IMG/VR virus record: IMGVR_UViG_3300022930_000020
Location: 1-36,563 of that record
Source of the DNA: a virus
Taxonomy: Duplodnaviria > Caudoviricetes
Reading direction: 5' to 3' (one strand)
Length of the DNA: 36,563 nt
Below the pieces are notes generated by a model. That model was not told where the DNA came from. It saw nothing but the letters and a program-made list of their open reading frames with translations, and did not search any database. The translations under genes were made by a program, and so were the position numbers. This document shows positions 128 through 36,563 of the stretch, one piece after another (positions within the stretch are counted from its first letter, which is position 1; every line of letters begins with the position of its first letter).

Positions 128-212
128 TCGCTTTCGGTTCGAAAACGTGCAGAAAACTTAGAAGTACTTTTCCCGAAGTTGCTCGGGAGCTTTTTGCTTT
201 TTCTGTCGCCAT
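1..212 (-). CDS. ssDNA-binding protein (DUF2815/gp2.5-like), 5' part; gene crosses the circular join
   Basis: ATG at 212 gives MATEKAKSSRATSGKVLLSFLHVFEPKAISDGDDEKYSVSVIISKKD. The frame continues at 36436 down to TAA at 36046 (603 nt, 200 aa). Confidence 0.9.
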   Translation of the reverse strand, partial: MATEKAKSSRATSGKVLLSFLHVFEPKAISDGDDEKYSVSVIISKKDKFTLTAYRAAIKAVETQVIKEKY

Positions 213-2041: not shown

Positions 2042-2473
2042 CTATTTCAGTTTCTTAAGGAAATTGTAAAACTCCTCGAATTTTGCCTCCTTAAGATCTC
2101 CGATTTTAGCGGCTCCGGTAGCTTTAAGCTTCTTAAGGATTGTGTCGCGGTTCTTATCGACTTTATCGGCCATAACCGCCTTAATGTCGTCAAGGGTAAT
2201 ACCGTCCTCGTCCTCTTCGGTGTCGTCCTCTGCTAAAGGGTCGTACTCCTCGTCGTCCTCGTCCTCTTCCGGCTCTTCGACTGGTTTTGGTTTAGCTCTC
2301 GACGGTCTGGGTTTAGCAGTTGAGGTCTTTTTGACCGGTTCGTCCTCGTCCTGAACGACTTCAAGTTTTCCGGCTTTTACCGCGTCTGTGCCCATTGTCG
2401 CTCTGCTTAATAAATCTTTTACAAGTTCAACGTTTTTGCTGTTGAAAGGGATTTCTAGTTTAATCGTGTTCAT
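2042..2473 (-). CDS. hypothetical protein with acidic linker and small C-terminal helical domain
   Basis: 143 aa. The C-terminal ITLDDIKA...FYNFLKKLK domain is the type usually found upstream of DUF2800. Confidence 0.8.
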   Translation of the reverse strand: MNTIKLEIPFNSKNVELVKDLLSRATMGTDAVKAGKLEVVQDEDEPVKKTSTAKPRPSRAKPKPVEEPEEDEDDEEYDPLAEDDTEEDEDGITLDDIKAVMADKVDKNRDTILKKLKATGAAKIGDLKEAKFEEFYNFLKKLK

Positions 2474-2910: not shown

Positions 2911-2957
2911 CAAATATACAAACTGTTTTCATATTTCCAAACGTTTTGGATAAAAAA
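2911..2957 (-). promoter_or_regulatory. Bacteroidota sigmaA promoter with palindromic operator-like site
   Basis: Minus strand TTTG-N19-TATATTTG (-33/-7 consensus). TCCAAA-cgt-TTTGGA palindrome overlaps the -33 element. Confidence 0.8.
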
Positions 2958-4837: not shown

Positions 4838-6787
4838 TTATGGATATATACGTATTTCAAAAGTCGAATACGAGTAGGCGAGTACTGCATCCTGGCCGAC
4901 TGCAGCGGCGGTTTGTGTTTTTATATTTATTGCGGTCGTACTGATTACATTTGACATACTTTGTATAGCGGGGTTTGTGGTAGGTATATACGGAACCATA
5001 GTTTTGTTTGCGGTGAAAGAGGCGCCGGTTATGGTAGCAGTATAATCTCCTGCAGCATTATATGTATAACTTACAGTTCCGCCGGTGGTATTTTCTAAAA
5101 CTAATACGGTAGGCGCACTGGTGCCAGACTGTGCTATTAATGCAGAATATACTTTGTAAGGCCTAACTGACGCGGTGGCTGCCGCAATTCCCGCATTTAC
5201 GGCTGTAACTGTTGGGTATTTTGTATTTGTAACATCTGCGACAAGCGAGTTTTGTTTGTTTGCTGAATATTCAATAGAAGTGCTTAGTATTTTCTCTACC
5301 ACACTACTGCCACTGTTTCTTGTTAGTATATCGAACGTAGACGCGCTAGTAACGGGTATTGTTGAAAAAACTATTCCGGGAGTTGTTACATTTCCGGCAA
5401 ATGTTGTCGCTCCACTTCTTAAAATATTAACTATGTTTACAGACGCGTTTTGAAAAGAAAAAGCACTTCCTGCTGTCGTTAGAGATTGCAAAACCCCTCC
5501 TGATTCCCAAGCCGTTCTAAAAACCATATCAGATTCCCCTGTACGAATCACGTCGGAATTTTGCATAGCTACGTTTAGAAACCCTGTGTTCGCGGGAAAA
5601 GGATTCCTAGTTATTATCATTGGAGCAATACCCGAAGCTCTATTCCCAAAAACCATCGTTCCGGCTAAAACACTGGTATAAGGAGTAGATGTCGAGCTTC
5701 CGACCGTTATTTTTGTCGTTGTAGTTTCGCCTAATGAATTGGCGTAAAAAAGTTTGTTAGTTGATAAAAGCGGGTTTAAATAATAGACATTTAGAGTAGA
5801 TAGACCTAAACCGGCTATTAAAATTCTAACCTCTCCGTTAACAACTTGAACACCTTCGCCTCTATGCGGCTCCGCTAAATTACCGGGCAGCACTCTTAAA
5901 AAAGTTTTTACCGATCCGTCTAAGCTTAACTTAGATAAATTTGCCTGCTCTACAACATAAAACTCACCATTATATAAAGATATTCCTTGTATGTTGTTGG
6001 TAAAAGGCGACGAAATTGTGATAAAGCCTAAATAATTACCTACTAGGTCGTATTTCCATATTTTAGACCCGTCCAAATACGAAGATATATATATAGTTGT
6101 TCCATCCGTGGTCATTGACGAACATTCGTGATTTTGTGCAGATATATCATACGTCGCTACAAGTGCCAAAGTCGCAGCGTTGTACTTAGCTATTTTCATG
6201 CCGGTAACAGCAGGGTACGTTTCAGCTGGCGCATAAATGAACCCGCTTAAATAGAAACCATCGCCTAAATGGTTTACTCCTGTTATTCCGCTAAGAGGGT
6301 TTGTGTTCTGAGCGACAACCGTCCAAGAAGAATTTAATTTTTTAATTATGTTAGTACCTATCATATAGTGATACGTACCATCAAACGTATAGCCTTGCTC
6401 GGTGTCTGTTAAATTTGGTGAGGTATAAGTTACCTGATAATCTTGGGAACCTACTGCCAGACCTGTATTTGATGTTATATCTCCGCTTGACCTTGTAGAA
6501 CCTAATACATCTAAATTTGTTTGAGGCGAAGATATGCCTATCCCTACTTTTCCGGTGTTGTTGTTATATATATTGTTCCCTGATTTACTCCATACTAAAT
6601 CAGTAGAAAGCGCAAAAGGCAAATTAACCGGAGCTATTTTAGTCTGCAATCCTGTTGCATCCGTAGCAGTTAAGAAACTCGTAGAAGTAACGGTCGGCTG
6701 GCCTCCGCTTATTCTAACGCCCTCAGGAAAACGAGCTTGTCCGAAAGCAGAAATCGATATTAATATTAGTAAGATTATTCTTTTCAT
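4838..6787 (-). CDS. tail fibre/receptor-binding-like protein with beta-propeller and N-terminal signal peptide
   Basis: MKRIILLILISISAFG|Q, GKVGIG.SSP fibre motif, propeller-like blade repeats (QGYTFDG, SSMTTDG, QGISLYNG, EGVQVVNG), Thr/Ser/Gly-rich. Confidence 0.65.
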   Translation of the reverse strand: MKRIILLILISISAFGQARFPEGVRISGGQPTVTSTSFLTATDATGLQTKIAPVNLPFALSTDLVWSKSGNNIYNNNTGKVGIGISSPQTNLDVLGSTRSSGDITSNTGLAVGSQDYQVTYTSPNLTDTEQGYTFDGTYHYMIGTNIIKKLNSSWTVVAQNTNPLSGITGVNHLGDGFYLSGFIYAPAETYPAVTGMKIAKYNAATLALVATYDISAQNHECSSMTTDGTTIYISSYLDGSKIWKYDLVGNYLGFITISSPFTNNIQGISLYNGEFYVVEQANLSKLSLDGSVKTFLRVLPGNLAEPHRGEGVQVVNGEVRILIAGLGLSTLNVYYLNPLLSTNKLFYANSLGETTTTKITVGSSTSTPYTSVLAGTMVFGNRASGIAPMIITRNPFPANTGFLNVAMQNSDVIRTGESDMVFRTAWESGGVLQSLTTAGSAFSFQNASVNIVNILRSGATTFAGNVTTPGIVFSTIPVTSASTFDILTRNSGSSVVEKILSTSIEYSANKQNSLVADVTNTKYPTVTAVNAGIAAATASVRPYKVYSALIAQSGTSAPTVLVLENTTGGTVSYTYNAAGDYTATITGASFTANKTMVPYIPTTNPAIQSMSNVISTTAINIKTQTAAAVGQDAVLAYSYSTFEIRIYP

Positions 6788-23159: not shown

Positions 23160-24911
23160 TTACTCCTCGGGTGCCTCTCTCAGCTCCTCCATTTCGTAAA
23201 TATATTTTAGGTTTTTGTCTATCGTTAGATTCTTATCTCGGTATTTTTCCATTAAACCGTCTCGGTCTGCCTCCTCGAGACTATTCCACCACTCGAGATA
23301 AACCTGTCTGTCTTTTTTACGCTCGACGGCTTTCGCAGATCTCTTTTTTGGCTGGGCGCTCTCTTTACGTTCGGACGGTTTTTGCGGTGCGGGTGCTTTG
23401 ACTATGTTGGTTTCTTTCAACTCTTCGCTTTTCCAGCCTGCTGAAATTAAATGCTCTTTTATCTGATCCGATAAAGTTTTACAGTATTTAGGGTAGGAGA
23501 TCCCTCTGGATAATCTGCAATAAGCCCGGTTCAAAAGATCGTTCGCTTTCTCCAATTTGTCGCCAGTCTCTTTACGGACTTCGGCTTTTGCTTTTTCGAT
23601 TGCCTCCTTAATTCCAGGAGTATCAACGTTTACCGTCAGCGTGGTCGTTTGCTTATAAGGTTCCGCCGTTCTGATCTGATTCAATCGACGTTCAGCGGCT
23701 GACTTTTTGTATTTAAACTCGCCTACTCCGGTTTGCATAATGAAAAGTTTACCCAGCCCCTCGCAGTCCAGGCACTCCGACAATTTCTGACTCGGCCCGA
23801 CTCTAACCTCGCCGGTGCCTTTGCAACTCGGGCAGTCGCACGTTTTAATCTCGGATTCGTAGACCGCCTGCTTATCATTTACGTTTGTATCTGCAGGTAC
23901 GTAAACCGTAGTTTCGAAACTTTCATAAGCTCTGCGGAGTTTAGCCGTTTTAAATTGCGGCACATTTTCTCGAACCTTTTCCGGTTTTTGCGGTTCCGCC
24001 GTTTCGATCTCACCTGTACCGCAGCAAAAATCGCAAGTCTGTTCGTATTTCATATCTTCGACGTCTACAGTCACGATCCCGTCACCCTCACATCTAGGGC
24101 ACAATGTTTTATTTACTTCGTTCGGGAAATCCGGACCGTCGGGGTAAAGCTCTGCACTCATCACATTTATAGGCATAAACCTGCGATTGTTATTATCATT
24201 CTTAAAAGCTTCAATAATACGGTCCGGGTTTGCATTCGATTTTTCAGCGCCTGCTTTCTCATCAGCGATAAACTTTTCAAGGTCCCCGCCGATTTTGCAT
24301 ATCTGTACCGGGCCGACCTCAGGGAAAGCCTCTTTTAAATCTCGCAGGGTGCGCCATATTAAGCCATACCTGCTTTCGTTTTCAAGTTTTAACTCGGTGA
24401 TCTTTTTCGCCTGCAGCTGCATAGTGGTTTTATCTATTTTTGTTTCGGCTTTTAGCTTTTCTATTTCCGCGGTCATTTTCTCCTCGCGAAGTTTATAGCC
24501 GTCCAGATCAAAATTATTGTTGGCGATAGTCTTTTCCGCTTTTAAATACTTTGCATCAAGTTCCGAAACAGAATTGTCCTGTATACGTATAACGGTTTTT
24601 GCTTTTCTAAGTTCGTCCCTGACCGCGTAGTAATCCAATCGTGAAGCTTTAAATTTGCTGCGCAACTCTCCGAGTTCAAAATTTAAGATCTTAATCTTTT
24701 CGGCGGTTCTGTTGTCTGACATACGCTTATCAATAGCGGCCGCGAGCTCCTGCAGTTTTTCAACGTGCGGCCTGTTCTCCGTTAAAGTAAAGCTGGCAGC
24801 GAAACGTTTTTTAACTGCCCGGATCTGGTCGTCCTGATCTGATACCCGATAAGCGAGAAAGACCAGAGCAAATGCAAAAGCGATAAACATAATAATTGTG
24901 TTAGTTTCCAT
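23160..24911 (-). CDS. membrane-anchored coiled-coil protein with DnaJ-type zinc fingers
   Basis: N-terminal TM, long coiled coil, four CxxCxGxG motifs (CPRCEGDG, CDFCCGTG, CPSCKGTG, CLDCEGLG). Confidence 0.8.
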   Translation of the reverse strand: METNTIIMFIAFAFALVFLAYRVSDQDDQIRAVKKRFAASFTLTENRPHVEKLQELAAAIDKRMSDNRTAEKIKILNFELGELRSKFKASRLDYYAVRDELRKAKTVIRIQDNSVSELDAKYLKAEKTIANNNFDLDGYKLREEKMTAEIEKLKAETKIDKTTMQLQAKKITELKLENESRYGLIWRTLRDLKEAFPEVGPVQICKIGGDLEKFIADEKAGAEKSNANPDRIIEAFKNDNNNRRFMPINVMSAELYPDGPDFPNEVNKTLCPRCEGDGIVTVDVEDMKYEQTCDFCCGTGEIETAEPQKPEKVRENVPQFKTAKLRRAYESFETTVYVPADTNVNDKQAVYESEIKTCDCPSCKGTGEVRVGPSQKLSECLDCEGLGKLFIMQTGVGEFKYKKSAAERRLNQIRTAEPYKQTTTLTVNVDTPGIKEAIEKAKAEVRKETGDKLEKANDLLNRAYCRLSRGISYPKYCKTLSDQIKEHLISAGWKSEELKETNIVKAPAPQKPSERKESAQPKKRSAKAVERKKDRQVYLEWWNSLEEADRDGLMEKYRDKNLTIDKNLKYIYEMEELREAPEE

Positions 24912-25377: not shown

Positions 25378-25695
25378 TCATTCTAAATTAGTTAAAAAAT
25401 TGTAAAAGGTTTTATACTGAGTCTGTTTCAATTTGCTGGGCCTATCCGCACCCATAGCATAGAGTCTGTTAATAATGGCACGTCTGTGATCTATTTTGCG
25501 ATCTATTTTGCGGACTATCTGCGCCATGATGTCGGCGAAAGTTGGACCGCCTCCGAGGTTGTAACGTTTAGTTATGTGCCAAGTACCCACACAAAATGGT
25601 TCGTCGGCTATGTTGCAGTTATGCGGGTAGTACACTTCGTAAAACTCTGGGACATTAGGCAGCTTGTATAATGCCGCCCCTAGAATGGTGGCCAT
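25378..25695 (-). CDS. hypothetical protein
   Basis: 105-aa ATG ORF packed in the early operon. Confidence 0.65.
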   Translation of the reverse strand: MATILGAALYKLPNVPEFYEVYYPHNCNIADEPFCVGTWHITKRYNLGGGPTFADIMAQIVRKIDRKIDHRRAIINRLYAMGADRPSKLKQTQYKTFYNFLTNLE

Positions 25696-25980: not shown

Positions 25981-26148
25981 TTATCTATTTTTAAAGTTAA
26001 ATTTATAATTGTGTCTTTTCCCTATGCGGGACCTGCACGGCTTTCGCTCTTCGCCTGATCGCTTTGTCAGGATATACGCCTCAATAACGGCAAGGCCTGC
26101 AGATCCGTTCCCGCCGTCAAAACGGCAGTTCTTAAGTTCGATTTTCAT
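25981..26148 (-). CDS. hypothetical protein
   Basis: 55 aa from the ATG at 26148 (ATGA overlap with the upstream stop). Confidence 0.55.
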   Translation of the reverse strand: MKIELKNCRFDGGNGSAGLAVIEAYILTKRSGEERKPCRSRIGKRHNYKFNFKNR

Positions 26149-26543
26149 ACGTCGCTCGGTTTTTGGCAGCATTCTAGGCACAAAGTGAAACCGACTCGGG
26201 TAGTCTCATCACGTGCGCCGCATTTGTGGCAGACTCCAAACTCCGGTTCCGGGTGCAGCTGCTCTTTTAAGCTGGCGACTGAATTTCTTAGGATCTCGTT
26301 CTCAGCGTTAAGTTCTCCGACTCTCTGCGAAAGTCTTTCGTTTTCCTTTGCTCCTTTGGCGCCCAGTTCTAAAACTACCAGCCTAAAGTTTGCCGCGTCT
26401 CTCATTACGTGATCGAGCACCGCATAAACACCGAGTCCCATTTTAAGAGAATCGGCCGCCGATCTAAAAGCGGGATCCTCTGCGTATCGACGCTCGCCGT
26501 TTTCGAACAGCGCGAGTATTTCGTCTAAGTTTAAATTTGCCAT
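26145..26543 (-). CDS. coiled-coil protein with C-terminal zinc ribbon
   Basis: ATG at 26543, just after the upstream stop. Coiled coil, then CHKC...CLEC. Confidence 0.7.
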   Translation of the reverse strand: MANLNLDEILALFENGERRYAEDPAFRSAADSLKMGLGVYAVLDHVMRDAANFRLVVLELGAKGAKENERLSQRVGELNAENEILRNSVASLKEQLHPEPEFGVCHKCGARDETTRVGFTLCLECCQKPSDV

Positions 26544-26545
26544 AA

Positions 26546-26878
26546 TTACGATTTTAATGTTTCTAAAAACTTTCTCATTTCCGGCCACTCGGCGGGTTCT
26601 ATATCGTAAATCGTTAAACGCCCGAGCTCGAATAACTTCTTAGATATTAACCGGCTATTCTCGGCCCCGTCTAACTTTGATAGGTAGAGGCTTATAAGCT
26701 CCTCTCGCTGTTCTCTCTTAAGAGCTTCTTTTTTAAACCTCCTGTCACATCGCCAGATATGAAGCTCCCAGCTAATCAATACGCACACCCTGTACAAAGT
26801 GATTAGTACCATAGATCCGACATAAGAGCAGAGGACAATTAAAATCCAGTTCAGTAGTTGTTCGTTTGTGAATGTCAT
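26546..26878 (-). CDS. hypothetical membrane protein
   Basis: 110 aa with an N-terminal TM helix. Confidence 0.7.
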   Translation of the reverse strand: MTFTNEQLLNWILIVLCSYVGSMVLITLYRVCVLISWELHIWRCDRRFKKEALKREQREELISLYLSKLDGAENSRLISKKLFELGRLTIYDIEPAEWPEMRKFLETLKS

Positions 26879-26882
26879 AATC

Positions 26883-27485
26883 TTAATTATTAAAGTGAAA
26901 CGTTACGCCTGCCATCGGTCCCGCGACGCTGTCATACGAACCTCGCAGCCCGATAGCGTCTGAAATCTTATACTCGACTGCTATGCCCAGCGCGAGAAAT
27001 AAATCCTTTGTAGGCTTTCCATTGATCGATTGATCTACGTATGCGCCTCCAATCTTTCCAATAATTGAAAGCTCGTCAAACTTTCCGCCGATAAGTCCAA
27101 AGACCGCAGGCGTAAACGATCCGTTAAACTGGTGCACGGTTCCGCGGTCGTTACGGTTCGCTCTCTTCTCGGTTACGTCCGTGGCCGTTGCAGATACTGC
27201 AGCCCCGAAAATCAATTCGTTTTCCGCTTCATACGCGAAAGATAGTTCCGCGGATTTATACCCGACCATTGCGGAGGCCTGCGTCTGTGCCATAGTAAGT
27301 GCAGGTATGAAAAGAATAAGGATCTTAAGTGTATTCAGAAACTTATAAAAGATCTCGTACTGCTTCGGGTTTATATCTATTATTTTTCTAATGCCCATAA
27401 TAGATAAAACCGCTCTGATTGTATCGTAATGACTGTCGGCCTTAGTCGCTGTTAAAGCTTTGATTTGATCTAAAGTAATTTTCAT
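26883..27485 (-). CDS. outer-membrane beta-barrel-like protein with N-terminal duplicated helical domain and internal signal peptide
   Basis: aa 3-54 match the C-terminal domain of 2042-2473. Then KILILFIPALTMA|Q, amphipathic beta strands (LGIAVEYKI, IGLRGSY) and a terminal AGVTFHF. Confidence 0.75.
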   Translation of the reverse strand: MKITLDQIKALTATKADSHYDTIRAVLSIMGIRKIIDINPKQYEIFYKFLNTLKILILFIPALTMAQTQASAMVGYKSAELSFAYEAENELIFGAAVSATATDVTEKRANRNDRGTVHQFNGSFTPAVFGLIGGKFDELSIIGKIGGAYVDQSINGKPTKDLFLALGIAVEYKISDAIGLRGSYDSVAGPMAGVTFHFNN

Positions 27486-27694
27486 AATTCGTGTGCTTTT
27501 CTGATTAATATTATTTGGTGCTGGTGTTCGGCGCAGTGAATGTCCGCCCAGAAGTCGAAACCCTCTGGTGTGTCGTCAAAGTGAAACGCCTCGTATAAAT
27601 CGTCCGTATACTTATCTGCGTCCGGATCTGTCTCGGCCGCTTGATTTTTTCGGGCCAGTGCTTTAATAGCTTCGGGTAGTTGAGAAATATTCAT
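27482..27694 (-). CDS. small conserved phage protein
   Basis: 70 aa with F.F..TPEG.DFW motif seen in Bacteroidota phage proteins. Confidence 0.7.
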   Translation of the reverse strand: MNISQLPEAIKALARKNQAAETDPDADKYTDDLYEAFHFDDTPEGFDFWADIHCAEHQHQIILIRKAHEL

Positions 27695-27743
27695 ATTGTT
27701 ATAAATTTAGGGAGGCGGTTAAACCTCCCGAGTTAATTAATTT

Positions 27744-28012: not shown

Positions 28013-28061
28013 CAAATATACAACCTTTATTTTGATATAACCAAATATTTTGGATAAAAAA
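28013..28061 (-). promoter_or_regulatory. Bacteroidota sigmaA promoter with operator-like palindrome
   Basis: Minus strand TTTG-N21-TATATTTG. CCAAA-tat-TTTGG palindrome. Shares TTTTGGATAAAAAA with 2944-2957. Confidence 0.8.
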
Positions 28062-28067
28062 GTAAAA

Positions 28068-29459
28068 TTATTTTGAAGTTTTAAAAGAAAGCCCGTATTT
28101 CCTAAGCTTAGCCTTGACTGCATTCATAAGACCGTCCTGCGTTCTGCCCTTGCTCGAGAGTGTACGCGCTACGGTTTCGTACTCCGTACCCGTGGCGATC
28201 AGTCTATAGATACGCACCTGCTTTTTTTGGCCCGGACGCGGCAGCCTTTTGTTCCACTGCTCGTACAATTCGAGCGACCAGTTAAGGGAGTACCATATCG
28301 CGATCGATCCGCCGAACTGCAGATTAAGTCCGTGTCCTCCCGAGGCCGGATGCATAACCAAAACCTGAATCTTTCCGGCGTTCCAGTCGTCCTCGTGTTT
28401 GGTCGTTTGAAAGTGAACAGGATTGTAAGCCTTTAAACGTTTCATAATCCGGTCGCGTTCGTGCTGAAAACTATAGGCGACCATTACCGGCTGGCCGTTC
28501 GCCTCTTCGATCAGATCCTCGAGGGCGTCGAGCAATTCATTGTGTATTTCGTGCACCTGCTTTTCGTCGTCATAGATCGCACCGCCTGCGAACTGCAGCA
28601 GCTTTCCGGACATAACGCTCGCGGTCATCGCCGTAACCTCTGACTCGAGCAGCTCCATAACGCGCTCGCGTTCGAACTTCTCGTATTTTTTCATAGTGCG
28701 ATCCAGCAGGCGGACCGGTACGTCGATAAACCGGACCGGTTCGAGATCCAGATAATCTTCGGACTTCATAGAGATAACTATGTCCTTAATCAATTTATAG
28801 ATCCTGTTTGATGTTTTCTCGGTAGGTACGTATTTCCCGTAGTGAGATCCCGGTTTCGAAACGTGATTAAAGAATCGATCTTTGTAGTGCGTAACGAAAG
28901 CGCCCAGGCGTTTGCCCCTGTCGAGCATCCAGATTTGAAACCATAAATCTACCAGACCGTTAGGCGCGGGCGTACCGGTCAGAATAACAATGCGGCTAAA
29001 CAACGGCTGTATTTTTTTAAAGATCTCTGCCTTTATTGACTTGGGATTTTTAAACTTTGAACTCTCGTCGACGACGCACATATCCTCTGGAACTTTACCG
29101 CCTCCGAACTGCGCAACGTACCAGGCGAAATTATCGCACGATATAAGGCGTATGTCGTACGGCTCGCGCATCTTTGCCAGCCTCTGCTTTTCCGTGCCCT
29201 CAACTACGACCAGTTTAAGCTTTTTAAGCTGGGACCACTTGGCGACCTCTTTGGGCCACGTAGACGAGACGACGCGCTTTGGTCCTATAATAAGTACGCG
29301 CCTGATCTCGAGCTCCTCGTAAAGCAGGGTATTGAGCGCTGTTAAAACGCTGACGGTTTTACCCATACCCATATCTAAAAACAACCCGCAAAAGGGGTTG
29401 TCGATAATATGCTGGATAACTGGCGGCTGGTACGGGTATAGATCTTTAAGTCCTTTCAC
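28068..29459 (-). CDS. SNF2-family (SF2) helicase
   Basis: LYPYQ, LDMGMGKT, VVDESS, LTGTP, SGGHGLNLQ, RL.RPGQ. Confidence 0.93.
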   Translation of the reverse strand: MKGLKDLYPYQPPVIQHIIDNPFCGLFLDMGMGKTVSVLTALNTLLYEELEIRRVLIIGPKRVVSSTWPKEVAKWSQLKKLKLVVVEGTEKQRLAKMREPYDIRLISCDNFAWYVAQFGGGKVPEDMCVVDESSKFKNPKSIKAEIFKKIQPLFSRIVILTGTPAPNGLVDLWFQIWMLDRGKRLGAFVTHYKDRFFNHVSKPGSHYGKYVPTEKTSNRIYKLIKDIVISMKSEDYLDLEPVRFIDVPVRLLDRTMKKYEKFERERVMELLESEVTAMTASVMSGKLLQFAGGAIYDDEKQVHEIHNELLDALEDLIEEANGQPVMVAYSFQHERDRIMKRLKAYNPVHFQTTKHEDDWNAGKIQVLVMHPASGGHGLNLQFGGSIAIWYSLNWSLELYEQWNKRLPRPGQKKQVRIYRLIATGTEYETVARTLSSKGRTQDGLMNAVKAKLRKYGLSFKTSK

Positions 29460-30112
29460 GATATGGTTATGCTTATGAAGTTATTAATTTCCGCAGGTCC
29501 TGCCCATTGTTCGGCCATTGCTTTTGCGATGCCTGGAAAGGTTTTACTTTTGGTTTTAGAATCCCTGAACTTAAGCCCGGGGTTTTTTCTGGGGTTTCCG
29601 TTTTGATCTTTGGATCCGCCAGAAACCCAGCTGATCGTCTCGCCTGTGTAAATTTCCGTAGGCTTTATTTTCGGCAGACCTTTAAGCCAAAGGCAGGTTT
29701 TTTTTGTATAAGGGTGTCCGTGCTCCCAGGGCTGGATTATCTGATTGTATTTTGGCATTTGGTAAACGCCGCTAGGGACCGGATTTTCTATGGCTATCCT
29801 GGGGCAGTCAGCATTATAAAATTTCATAAAAAACTCTTTCGCTTTTAATCCATTTTGGTACCGCTCCTCATTGATCTGCCCTTTTACCGGAAACAATCTG
29901 CAGGCCCCGGCATTGCTTATAAAAGTGCAGGGAGGGAAAGCGATAATCATATCCCATTGTAAGAGCAGCAGATCCGTTACGTCTGTCTGCAGGTGCCATT
30001 CTGGGTGTCCGCCTGAGCTCTCCTGTGTATCGCAGCTATAGGCTTCGTGGCCCAGTTTACGCAGTTCGATAGTTACGGCCTGGCTCTCTTCGCAAGCTAC
30101 TAGTATCTTCAT
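29456..30112 (-). CDS. compact DNA (cytosine-5) methyltransferase-like protein
   Basis: ILVACEES, WDMIIAFPPCT (catalytic PC), IENP, QPWEHGH, SKTFPGIAKAMAEQW. Confidence 0.85.
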   Translation of the reverse strand: MKILVACEESQAVTIELRKLGHEAYSCDTQESSGGHPEWHLQTDVTDLLLLQWDMIIAFPPCTFISNAGACRLFPVKGQINEERYQNGLKAKEFFMKFYNADCPRIAIENPVPSGVYQMPKYNQIIQPWEHGHPYTKKTCLWLKGLPKIKPTEIYTGETISWVSGGSKDQNGNPRKNPGLKFRDSKTKSKTFPGIAKAMAEQWAGPAEINNFISITIS

Positions 30113-30393
30113 ATTAAATATTCGTTAAGGAGGTTATCGAGATCGGCCAGGGTGTCAATTACGTACACCTTAAACCCTAATTTGCGCAATTGTCTGTGTA
30201 TTAATTTTTGAACGGGGCTCGCAGTTTTTCCGGTGCTTTTCACTTCGACAAAAAAGATAATGCCCATCGGGATAAGGACAAGGCGGTCCGGTAGTCCTGA
30301 GACATACGTACAGACCATTTTAATCGCCCAGCCTTTTGCTTTTTTAACGCGGGCGACTAATGTCTTTTCGATTACTTTCTCGCTGTCCGGCAT
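30109..30393 (-). CDS. VRR-NUC domain nuclease (resolvase-like)
   Basis: E..IE...GLPDRL...FVEVK....SPVQ...LRKLGF. Confidence 0.9.
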   Translation of the reverse strand: MPDSEKVIEKTLVARVKKAKGWAIKMVCTYVSGLPDRLVLIPMGIIFFVEVKSTGKTASPVQKLIHRQLRKLGFKVYVIDTLADLDNLLNEYLI

Positions 30394-30920
30394 TATAAAT
30401 TGAAAGTTTTAAACTCCGTCGGACCGGTGTAGCCTTTTTTCAATTCTATGATAACGGTTTGCACTCTTGCATAGTTAAATGTTTTTCGGGGTAAATATGT
30501 AACGGATTTTAATCCGAAAGCTTTTAAAGCTCTTAATCTAACGTCACTATCCGATATAGCAAACCAACACATAAGAGCGATTACGCTGTCGGCGCGGCGC
30601 ATCGCTTCGAATAGAAAGTAGTAACCTGTTTTCATTCCCTTTAATTTAAGCTTAAGCTCTTCGGGTGCATTTTCTAGGTTAGCGGATTTATCACTAAAAG
30701 GCGGGTTTAAAATTACAGCTTCGAATATGATATCAGGATCAAGCAAAAAATAATCTTTCGGTGCAGTAACGTTATTATAATTGTGCCAGGATAAAGCTTT
30801 TAAAATATTACCCTCGCCCGGTGTGGGTTCTAAAATACTAACGGCGTTTACCGGTAGCATCTTAACCATGTAATCGGCTACGTCTGCAGGGGTTTGAAAT
30901 TGTTTACTGATATCAGTCAT
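30393..30920 (-). CDS. DNA amino (N6-adenine) methyltransferase
   Basis: QFQTP, ILEPTPGEGNIL (motif I), NPPF (motif IV). Confidence 0.85.
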   Translation of the reverse strand: MTDISKQFQTPADVADYMVKMLPVNAVSILEPTPGEGNILKALSWHNYNNVTAPKDYFLLDPDIIFEAVILNPPFSDKSANLENAPEELKLKLKGMKTGYYFLFEAMRRADSVIALMCWFAISDSDVRLRALKAFGLKSVTYLPRKTFNYARVQTVIIELKKGYTGPTEFKTFNL

Positions 30921-35969: not shown

Positions 35970-36045
35970 GCCGTTAGTTCGCGATACGCGTTTGCTGTCA
36001 AGTCCTGAGACTGGCGCGCCTACTAACCGAGGCACTTAATTTATT

Positions 36046-36563
36046 TTACGCTAACGGGTCGAAATCGTCGTCATCGTCGTACTCGTAATCCTCGTCATCA
36101 ATGAATTGATCTGAGTCTGCGAAATCCTCCTCTGCGTTTCCGCCTCCGCCTCCTAACGGTGTACCGTCGGATAATTTCATAATACTTTCAAGTCCTGCGG
36201 CAATTCCTTTATTTCCGCCGACGTCGTAGGCGTAGAAATTAATACACACACGTCCGAAGCATCCGCTGTAAAGATCCTCCTCGTCTGTAATAGGTTCGAG
36301 GTTTTTGTCGTAAAGCTTAGGACGTCTTTTGCTGTTTGCTCCAATAAAGAACGAGTTTGCGTAACTTTCGTCGCGCTCCTCCTCCGGATCGTCTCCGTCT
36401 CTTAGAGGTGTTTTCCACTTCTTAGGGCGGATGCCTTTGTATTTCTCTTTAATGACCTGAGTTTCTACGGCTTTAATTGCTGCACGGTATGCCGTTAATG
36501 TGAATTTATCTTTTTTACTGATAATTACCGATACGCTGTACTTTTCGTCGTCGCCGTCGCTGA
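36046..36563 (-). CDS. ssDNA-binding protein (DUF2815/gp2.5-like), 3' part
   Basis: KTPLRDGD, FIGANSKRRP, YSGCFGRVCINFYAY..GNKGIAAGL...DGTPLGG, acidic tail ending FDPLA. Confidence 0.92.
   Translation of the reverse strand, partial: SDGDDEKYSVSVIISKKDKFTLTAYRAAIKAVETQVIKEKYKGIRPKKWKTPLRDGDDPEEERDESYANSFFIGANSKRRPKLYDKNLEPITDEEDLYSGCFGRVCINFYAYDVGGNKGIAAGLESIMKLSDGTPLGGGGGNAEEDFADSDQFIDDEDYEYDDDDDFDPLA
36437..36563. repeat. 127-bp terminal direct repeat, copy 2
   Basis: Identical to 1-127. Confidence 0.95.

Follow-up and report, generated by a model that had tools for sequence, protein, structure and literature searches.

A stray copy of a mobile phage domain in front of a predicted outer-membrane barrel: a likely product of recent recombination

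In a phage that likely infects Bacteroidota, a single 200-aa reading frame joins a small three-helix domain, a signal-peptide core and a predicted eight-stranded outer-membrane beta-barrel. We consider it probable (about 60%) that this fusion was made by recombination, with a barrel for which continued export and a block of adsorption of the lambda Lom type are both likely, and with the domain carried along as a passenger n-region. The splice is likely recent and lineage-specific, and would have placed a stray copy of the mobile domain onto the signal of a stand-alone barrel. An earlier sequence-only reading of the gene took the join for a design in which one gene serves two compartments. This was not supported, because just one of 56 barrel sequences has the fusion, other phage lineages possess the barrel but lack the domain next to it, the domain is mobile and the barrel N-terminus has been swapped repeatedly.

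The fused gene and the phage that carries it

The window (the whole stretch of DNA that was analysed, 36,563 bases) is a complete virus record with direct terminal repeats of 127 bases, and its main genes all lie on the minus strand. A replication module (PolA, primase-helicase, VRR-NUC, SNF2, DUF2800 and an Enc34-type SSB) is encoded together with terminase, portal and endolysin, and two DNA methyltransferase-like genes (29456-30112 and 30393-30920, minus strand) lie on either side of the VRR-NUC gene. The closest annotated primases are those of Croceibacter phage P2559Y (60%), Bacteroides phages (54%) and an Elizabethkingia phage (49%), which makes a Bacteroidota bacterium the likely host. 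The fused gene sits in a series of small accessory genes that separates the SNF2 helicase from the terminase. The sole run that contains its stretch, X1, is labelled leaf litter metagenome, and no RNA data set was listed for this region. The parts of the gene and related features are listed in Table 1.

Table 1. Coordinates of the fused gene, of copies of its domain and of related features (window positions unless a locus is named)
Feature	Position	Strand	Remarks
Fused gene, 200 aa: three-helix domain, signal h/c-region and predicted eight-stranded barrel	26883..27485	-	Single open frame, ATG to TAA
aa 1-54, copy of the phrog_5053/phrog_408-type C-terminal domain in n-region position, 33% G+C	27324..27485	-	Profile and pairwise match
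aa 55-66, signal-peptide h/c-region ILILFIPALTMA, predicted cleavage between A66 and Q67	27288..27323	-	11/16 residues common to P0018 and to P0008
aa 67-200, predicted eight-stranded outer-membrane beta-barrel of an unnamed phage family, 50% G+C	26886..27287	-	AlphaFold2, Foldseek, structural search
Upstream ORF, 70 aa	27482..27694	-	TGA stop overlaps the fused-gene ATG (ATGA); putative coupling
Canonical domain gene, domain at 2045-2200	2042..2473	-	Lies just before the gene for the DUF2800 nuclease; also conserved in four related phages
110-aa ORF, N-terminal hydrophobic segment and third domain copy at the C-terminus	26546..26878	-	phmmer, profile
105-aa ORF, fourth domain copy at the C-terminus	25378..25695	-	phmmer, profile
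Accessory domain copies outside the window	L038:16886-17449, L041:5735-5956, L008:726-1037		C-terminal on small accessory genes
Genes bearing (F/Y)DPL	2042-2473; 789-2039; SSB across the origin, 36043-36563 joined to 128-212	-	
Candidate promoter-like site, Bacteroidota-type (TTTG, 21 nt, TATATTTG)	28013..28045	-	Heads the small-gene operon with the fusion
Twin promoter-like site	~2911-2941	-	Precedes the replication genes
Secreted gene and barrel locus	L050:3696-4468; L051:3696-4459		
Look-alike n-regions	L013:594-680; L003:5980-6060; L004:5980-6060; P0014		

The resemblance of the N-terminus to the end of another protein of the phage, which had been noticed from the sequence, was reproduced. 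A gap-free alignment pairs aa 3-54 with aa 92-143 of ORF 2042-2473 at 25/52 identities (BLASTP pairwise E 4e-14; phmmer E 1.2e-10 among the 47 window ORFs). Where this paralogue ends in ...KKLK, the fused frame runs on, as described, into ILILFIPALTMA, a Q and the 134-aa domain. In agreement with the remark that no start codon directly precedes the hydrophobic core, residues 31-64 hold no ATG, GTG or TTG. M1 is the favoured start because its ATG overlaps the TGA of ORF 27482-27694 (ATGA). The domain segment has 33% G+C against 49% in the remainder of the gene, a bigger step than in any of 27 other genes (27/27; maximum 0.11), which suggests that the segment came from a different source.

The barrel, its family and its front ends

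AlphaFold2, run with 27 sequences, predicted eight strands over residues 67-198, with pLDDT mostly >90 in this block and 60-73 in residues 1-70, consistent with the earlier view of the C-terminal part as a small barrel. A Foldseek search, which had been proposed as a check, placed OmpA (1qjp, E 4e-6), Ail, NspA and OmpX at the top, with 20 matches at E <=0.001, and a wide structural search put OmpA first (Z 11.5, rmsd 3.3, 117 aligned). Because soluble eight-stranded barrels reached Z 9-10.5 in the same search, the fold alone is no proof of membrane insertion. The ESM Atlas agreed with the assignment to OmpA/OmpX/Lom-like barrels, and BFVD gave fold matches to the barrel in phages of Bacteroidota (Cellulophaga and Tenacibaculum phages). 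The predicted model has the eight strands of the OmpA-TM/OmpX/Ail/Lom class, alternating hydrophobic strand faces (A-L-F-Y, L-L-L-I-V-Y and P-A-V-F-F) and a last strand GVTFHF followed by NN; most homologues terminate in F or L, some with 1-2 extra residues.

The protein resembles lambda Lom and the Ail/OmpX/NspA/OmpA-TM class (PF13505 clan) in that it is phage-encoded and combines a predicted signal peptide with a predicted eight-stranded barrel of ~135 aa. It differs from them in the Bacteroidota-type Q at +1 and in the 54-aa foreign n-region, and the identity of the barrel to solved barrels of the class is 14-19%. The eight-stranded class is also that of barrels described in a survey of huge phages (bioRxiv 10.64898/2026.10.24.761521), whose Table 7 may hold members of the present family; the phage studied here measures 36.6 kb.

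The barrel family was counted as unnamed because PF13505 (OMP_b-brl) scored 15.4 bits, below its curated cut-off of 28.7, and 0/40 members matched PHROGs. Weak PF13505 matches were present in 12/27 members (best E 0.0015), and PF06316 (Ail_Lom) was unmatched at E 0.05. Homologues came from a word search (26) and from an HMMER scan without length limit (22 cluster representatives of 96-181 aa, 21 of them new). The family appears to comprise >50 small barrels from several Bacteroidota-type phage lineages, below the Pfam and PHROG cut-offs, and at least three further lineages (L001/L002, L003/L004 and L050/L051) have the barrel as a stand-alone protein. One weak 50-aa match in an Oscillospiraceae genome, from the genome-contig scan, and a similar one from the metagenome scan (L015 and L014) were not counted as homologues. 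None of four queries (the fused and canonical proteins, P0007 and the capsid protein) had a tblastn match among 50,697 GenBank phages.

The signal peptide that the sequence-only reading had recognized could be placed at aa 55-66, where a probable Sec/SPase I-type core, with its h-region and A-Q site, aligned with 50 homologues. In a permissive pattern test on 54 sequences, a hydrophobic core, then A/G/S, then Q was found in 51/51 intact front ends, the query included and the short or broken P0017, P0043 and P0048 not counted; the Gln at +1, to which attention had been drawn, is part of this pattern. Cleavage between A66 and Q67 is predicted from it. A Q at +1 fits the Q-rule reported for Bacteroidetes (PMC5837995), and Q-rule proteins of unknown function have already been noted in Porphyromonas phages (PMC10367356). 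A signal-like start, MKRIILLILISISAFG followed by Q, was also seen in the 649-aa product of gene 4838-6787 (minus strand) at the end of the structural region, where third-position G+C is 0.32 against about 0.5-0.6; the gene may be a recent acquisition whose product is exported and is not a tail fibre.

Front ends have been exchanged within the family. The core ILILFIPA..AQ is common at 11/16 positions to the query and to P0018 and P0008, which stand on other tree branches (barrels 54% and 63% identical), whereas the query's closest barrels share 4-7/16. At the protein level, at which these two junctions were read, P0018 has the core as a plain signal (MKTLIKILILFIPA). In P0008, a hydrophobic segment and a phrog_13068 domain (E 9e-10) run into the same ILILFIPA core and a family barrel; P0008 is, judged by its protein sequence, an independent fusion with a different phage domain. 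In L050 and L051, a secreted gene of 100 aa, without a Pfam match, lies directly upstream of a stand-alone barrel. Its signal agrees with those of the barrels P0022 (23/30) and P0002 and P0003 (18-20/30) and was found on P0025 as well, whereas P0023, an 81%-identical sister of P0022, has a short signal of another type.

Another common extension, of 46-49 aa, is carried by P0004, P0006 and P0048. These extensions were considered as decayed copies of the domain and rejected (hhalign probability <=0.2%; 84, 372 and 467 of 500 shuffles equalled the score). The signal of P0048 runs straight into the last two strands, most of the barrel being lost. Long n-regions of 46-84 aa are present in P0004, P0006 and P0008, which belong to separate clusters. 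Such swapped front ends would be the expected trace of repeated deletion or recombination between neighbouring genes, and composite genes have been described as widespread in viruses (PMC4202312).

In a distant barrel clade (P0014, L013, L003 and L004), an n-region helix with FE(K/R)FYD resembles the last helix of the domain. With a domain profile from which the fused copy had been left out, the P0014/L013 n-region (FEKFYDFMSN) gave 9.4 bits, a score reached by 0/500 shuffles and by 2/7,719 tiles. Among 461 N-terminal 28-mers, of which 354 scored, it took first place, followed by L003 and L004. The resemblance, which concerns four related sequences, was first spotted by eye among ~50 n-regions, had E 0.14 in the first test and is a hint that would fit the remnant of an older fusion, convergence on an amphipathic helix or a chance match.

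Among 54 barrel sequences, the domain profile matched only P0001, the fused query (next best E 0.14), and two barrels found later carry short signals. Comparison of fused and stand-alone homologues, another proposed check, thus left the fusion unique among 56 sequences, with 0/55 others fused; a conserved polyprotein of cytoplasmic domain, internal signal and barrel, kept in independent genomes, was likewise found in 0/55. When proteins of 30-350 aa were searched by shared words with aa 1-66, only the query was returned; these searches require shared 5-mers and can miss fused relatives, proteins >350 aa fall outside their range, and 50% clusters conceal members. In a tree of 48 barrels, which leaves out six rows (three partial, three near-duplicates), P0001 is nested among stand-alone forms with support of 100/95 and 98/88. 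P0002, its nearest relative (84%), has an ordinary signal peptide, and the last 102 residues of P0002 are those of the barrel in the syntenic locus L008, where a homologue of window gene 26145-26588 follows.

Compared with the L008 barrel over 102 codons, the fused barrel showed dN 0.075 and dS 1.37 (dN/dS about 0.05), indicating purifying selection, and its end branch in the tree is 0.01; together, these values fit continued function or a recent fusion. None of five virus records related by capsid protein carried the barrel (0/5), and four of the five share core genes and span the syntenic helicase-to-terminase interval. The domain was absent from six barrel-carrying virus records (G006-G009 and G011-G012; 0/6), five of which are >=90% complete. 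A literature search, with subscription journals mostly outside its coverage, found no account of the fusion or of the barrel family.

Copies and fold of the three-helix domain

The domain had been called duplicated. The duplication is real but the count was too low, as the window holds four copies, the two additional ones ending ORFs 25378-25695 (phmmer E 2e-4) and 26546-26878 (E 4e-3). Aa 3-53 match the C-terminal half of two profiles, phrog_5053 (E 3.7e-6, positions 48-99 of 99) and phrog_408 (E 0.0014), and ORF 2042-2473 matches the same halves. Proteins of these two families are encoded before DUF2800 nucleases in PolA-primase-VRR-NUC-SNF2 modules, and ORF 2042-2473, with its domain C-terminal just before DUF2800, is the canonical member. 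Whereas the domain is normally C-terminal, the fused copy is N-terminal, lies in the accessory operon and is joined to an export signal.

A profile search of the window and 29 loci gave 11 copies, five of them canonical before DUF2800 and six accessory. Nine of the 11 end no more than five residues before the stop, a contig end truncates one and one, in the fused gene only, is N-terminal. In the same variable region, G004 and G005 each carry an additional copy at the end of a small, unrelated gene. Across four phages of the group, domain copies were seen at the C-termini of unrelated small accessory genes, two of them behind a hydrophobic N-terminal segment. In the window, a 583-aa ORF (23160-24911, minus strand) starts with a hydrophobic segment and also encodes a coiled coil and two zinc-finger stretches of the DnaJ type; G004 has a shorter protein that is laid out like it and has the three-helix domain at the end. 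From these 11 copies in related phages and the Atlas and BFVD listings, which carry its wider distribution, we regard the domain as a mobile C-terminal module with several partners.

The fused copy is not a fresh duplicate of the canonical gene, because third codon positions agree in only 16/52; synonymous sites are saturated. In leave-one-out scoring it reached 49.7 bits, the best of five accessory copies (others 19-41; canonical copies 69-88), and it retains 5/5 near-invariant residues of the domain. The selection that preserved it may predate the fusion.

The predicted model of the domain is a small three-helix bundle (pLDDT 89). No clear match was found among known structures (best Z 5.3, ET domain), nor in the PDB by sequence at E below 0.4. 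The ESM Atlas contains look-alike viral proteins of 67-75 aa (TM 0.89), and the model matched uncharacterised phage proteins in BFVD. The Red-beta CTD/lambda Orf bundle is likewise a small three-helix bundle, and the Red-beta CTD is reported to bind lambda Exo and the SSB tail (PMC6393309); the canonical gene studied here adjoins a PD-(D/E)XK nuclease and lies near an acidic-tailed SSB. However, the Red-beta CTD, NinB/Orf and the C-terminal part of Sak gave Z 3.6-4.0, amid unrelated bundles, and the Red-beta CTD/Orf comparison (Z 4.0) ranked 18-23 of 48,161, tied with unrelated helical bundles. By analogy, a Red-beta-CTD-like role for the domain is a lead only. The tails of the SSB and of DUF2800 and the linker in the canonical domain protein (2042-2473) all contain an acidic stretch that ends in (F/Y)DPL; this stretch looks like an SSB-tail-type docking motif and is a candidate ligand of the basic three-helix domain.

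Origin of the fusion, rival explanations and expression

We propose that deletion or recombination occurred at a short look-alike stretch, between the end of a domain copy (...NTLK) and the start of a signal (MKTLIKIL...), and that the same event removed the stop and the start between the two genes. Translation would then begin at M1, Sec would accept the 66-residue signal, signal peptidase I would cleave between A66 and Q67, and BAM would insert the barrel in the outer membrane. The domain, still joined to the spent signal peptide, would remain on the cytoplasmic side of the membrane and be tolerated as a passenger without a dedicated job. Sec export, signal peptidase I cleavage and BAM insertion are the established route for outer-membrane barrels. 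Export of the fused barrel is plausible because n-regions in the family reach 46-84 aa, autotransporter signals of >50 residues exist and the Q at +1 fits the Q-rule, although a folded n-region could slow it. About 10% of autotransporters are reported to have signals >50 residues (PMC2805444). Their extended signal peptides likewise add a long N-terminal segment to a normal n/h/c signal and use Sec for an outer-membrane-bound protein; those extensions are about 25 aa and recurrent across many proteins, whereas the 54-aa folded domain was seen once.

An adsorption-blocking job for the barrel is likely by analogy, the precedent coming from Proteobacteria. Expressed Lom protects against lambda-vir, and two other eight-stranded barrels protect against T7 and lambda-vir (bioRxiv 10.1101/2025.02.28.640651). 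The huge-phage survey reports 1,603 barrels with the eight-stranded class the commonest, proposes receptor masking and refers to a report of Lom binding to LamB (bioRxiv 10.64898/2026.10.24.761521). The family offers testable candidates for adsorption blocking outside Proteobacteria, and the fused gene, on its most likely reading, illustrates how phage accessory genes are rebuilt, with an exported barrel whose front is repeatedly swapped and a small domain that spreads to several partners. Two observations count against the passenger explanation: the fused copy is the best preserved of the accessory copies, its five near-invariant residues kept, and the last-helix look-alike could mark an older or repeated link.

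Both would suit a selected two-compartment precursor, in which one gene yields an outer-membrane barrel and a membrane-tethered cytoplasmic domain. As a Red-beta-CTD-like binder of acidic SSB or nuclease tails, that domain would tether or titrate the replication-recombination machinery, or it would gate export by delaying it until replication proteins are present. The domain also stands behind a hydrophobic segment in the adjacent ORF 26546-26878 and in a 187-aa ORF of G004. Surface masking would then be timed to replication, the look-alike would be a relic of an earlier such fusion, and, if the tethered domain had a job, phage DNA replication would be coupled to cell-surface remodelling via one signal peptide. 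We nevertheless consider such a device quite unlikely, given the single fused case, the separation of barrel and domain in all other records examined, domain Z scores within helical-bundle noise, three copies unfused to the barrel already present in the phage and the joining of a different domain to the same signal core in P0008. An opposite reading, which we consider unlikely, is a harmful or inert accident: the folded domain would block or slow Sec targeting, little barrel would reach the outer membrane and the gene would be heading for decay. The fused form was seen once (a cluster of 1 member), broken versions such as P0048 exist in the family and close relatives lack the barrel; yet long n-regions persist in separate clusters and the barrel shows no decay in branch length or dN/dS, though a recent fusion would show none yet.

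Two further rivals concern the start and the reality of the frame. The fusion would be largely annotation-level if the barrel were made mostly from an internal start (M30, ATA38 or CTG50) with an ordinary signal of 17-37 residues, which we judge rather improbable. M30 would give a 37-aa signal, close to the 40-41-aa signals of L003, L004 and P0014, and ATA38, the main alternative to M1, has a strong start context (5.2 with a matrix from 38 window starts, the 68th percentile among these true starts). However, the in-frame M30 (ATG) and L50 (CTG) lie in weak contexts (-3.8, 8th percentile, and -2.8, 11th percentile) compared with M1 (2.4), whose ATG overlaps the upstream stop; Met or Leu is normal at residue 30 of the domain, and ATA and CTG starts are rare in bacteria. 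An assembly or sequencing artefact joining two genes is very improbable. The fused form comes from one sample only, with contigs the only data, but a Logan contig of X1 is identical across the stretch, with depth about 15 and no gaps or joints, the sequence is present in three sources, and a single-base error would not suffice, since the frame is continuous and no barrel start codon is left. An indel separating two genes, which the sequence-only reading had named as a possible refutation, was absent from this contig, where the stretch is in one piece; the contig is no independent confirmation, as X1 may be the source of the window.

Early or middle expression of the fused gene is plausible because the accessory operon is headed by a promoter-like site with a twin before the replication genes. 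Both candidate sites (28013-28045 and ~2911-2941) were recognized with a consensus that we take to be that of Bacteroidota promoters. Over 28013-28060 and 2911-2955 (minus strand), they show TTTG, 19-21 nt and TATATTTG, plus a common upstream TTTTTATCCAAAA stretch. A sigma-70 promoter scan of the window was at chance level (12 found against 8.8 +/- 3.3 expected). A 20-nt hairpin at 27710-27729 (minus strand) is identical in ~150 viral stretches, mostly with a T run behind it and a start codon 20-60 nt downstream, and the same hairpin lies 30 nt upstream of the barrel gene in L013. It was considered as an element linked to the barrel or the domain and rejected, since 119 viral loci with 67 distinct contexts included none with either within 2 kb; it is a common terminator-like hairpin.
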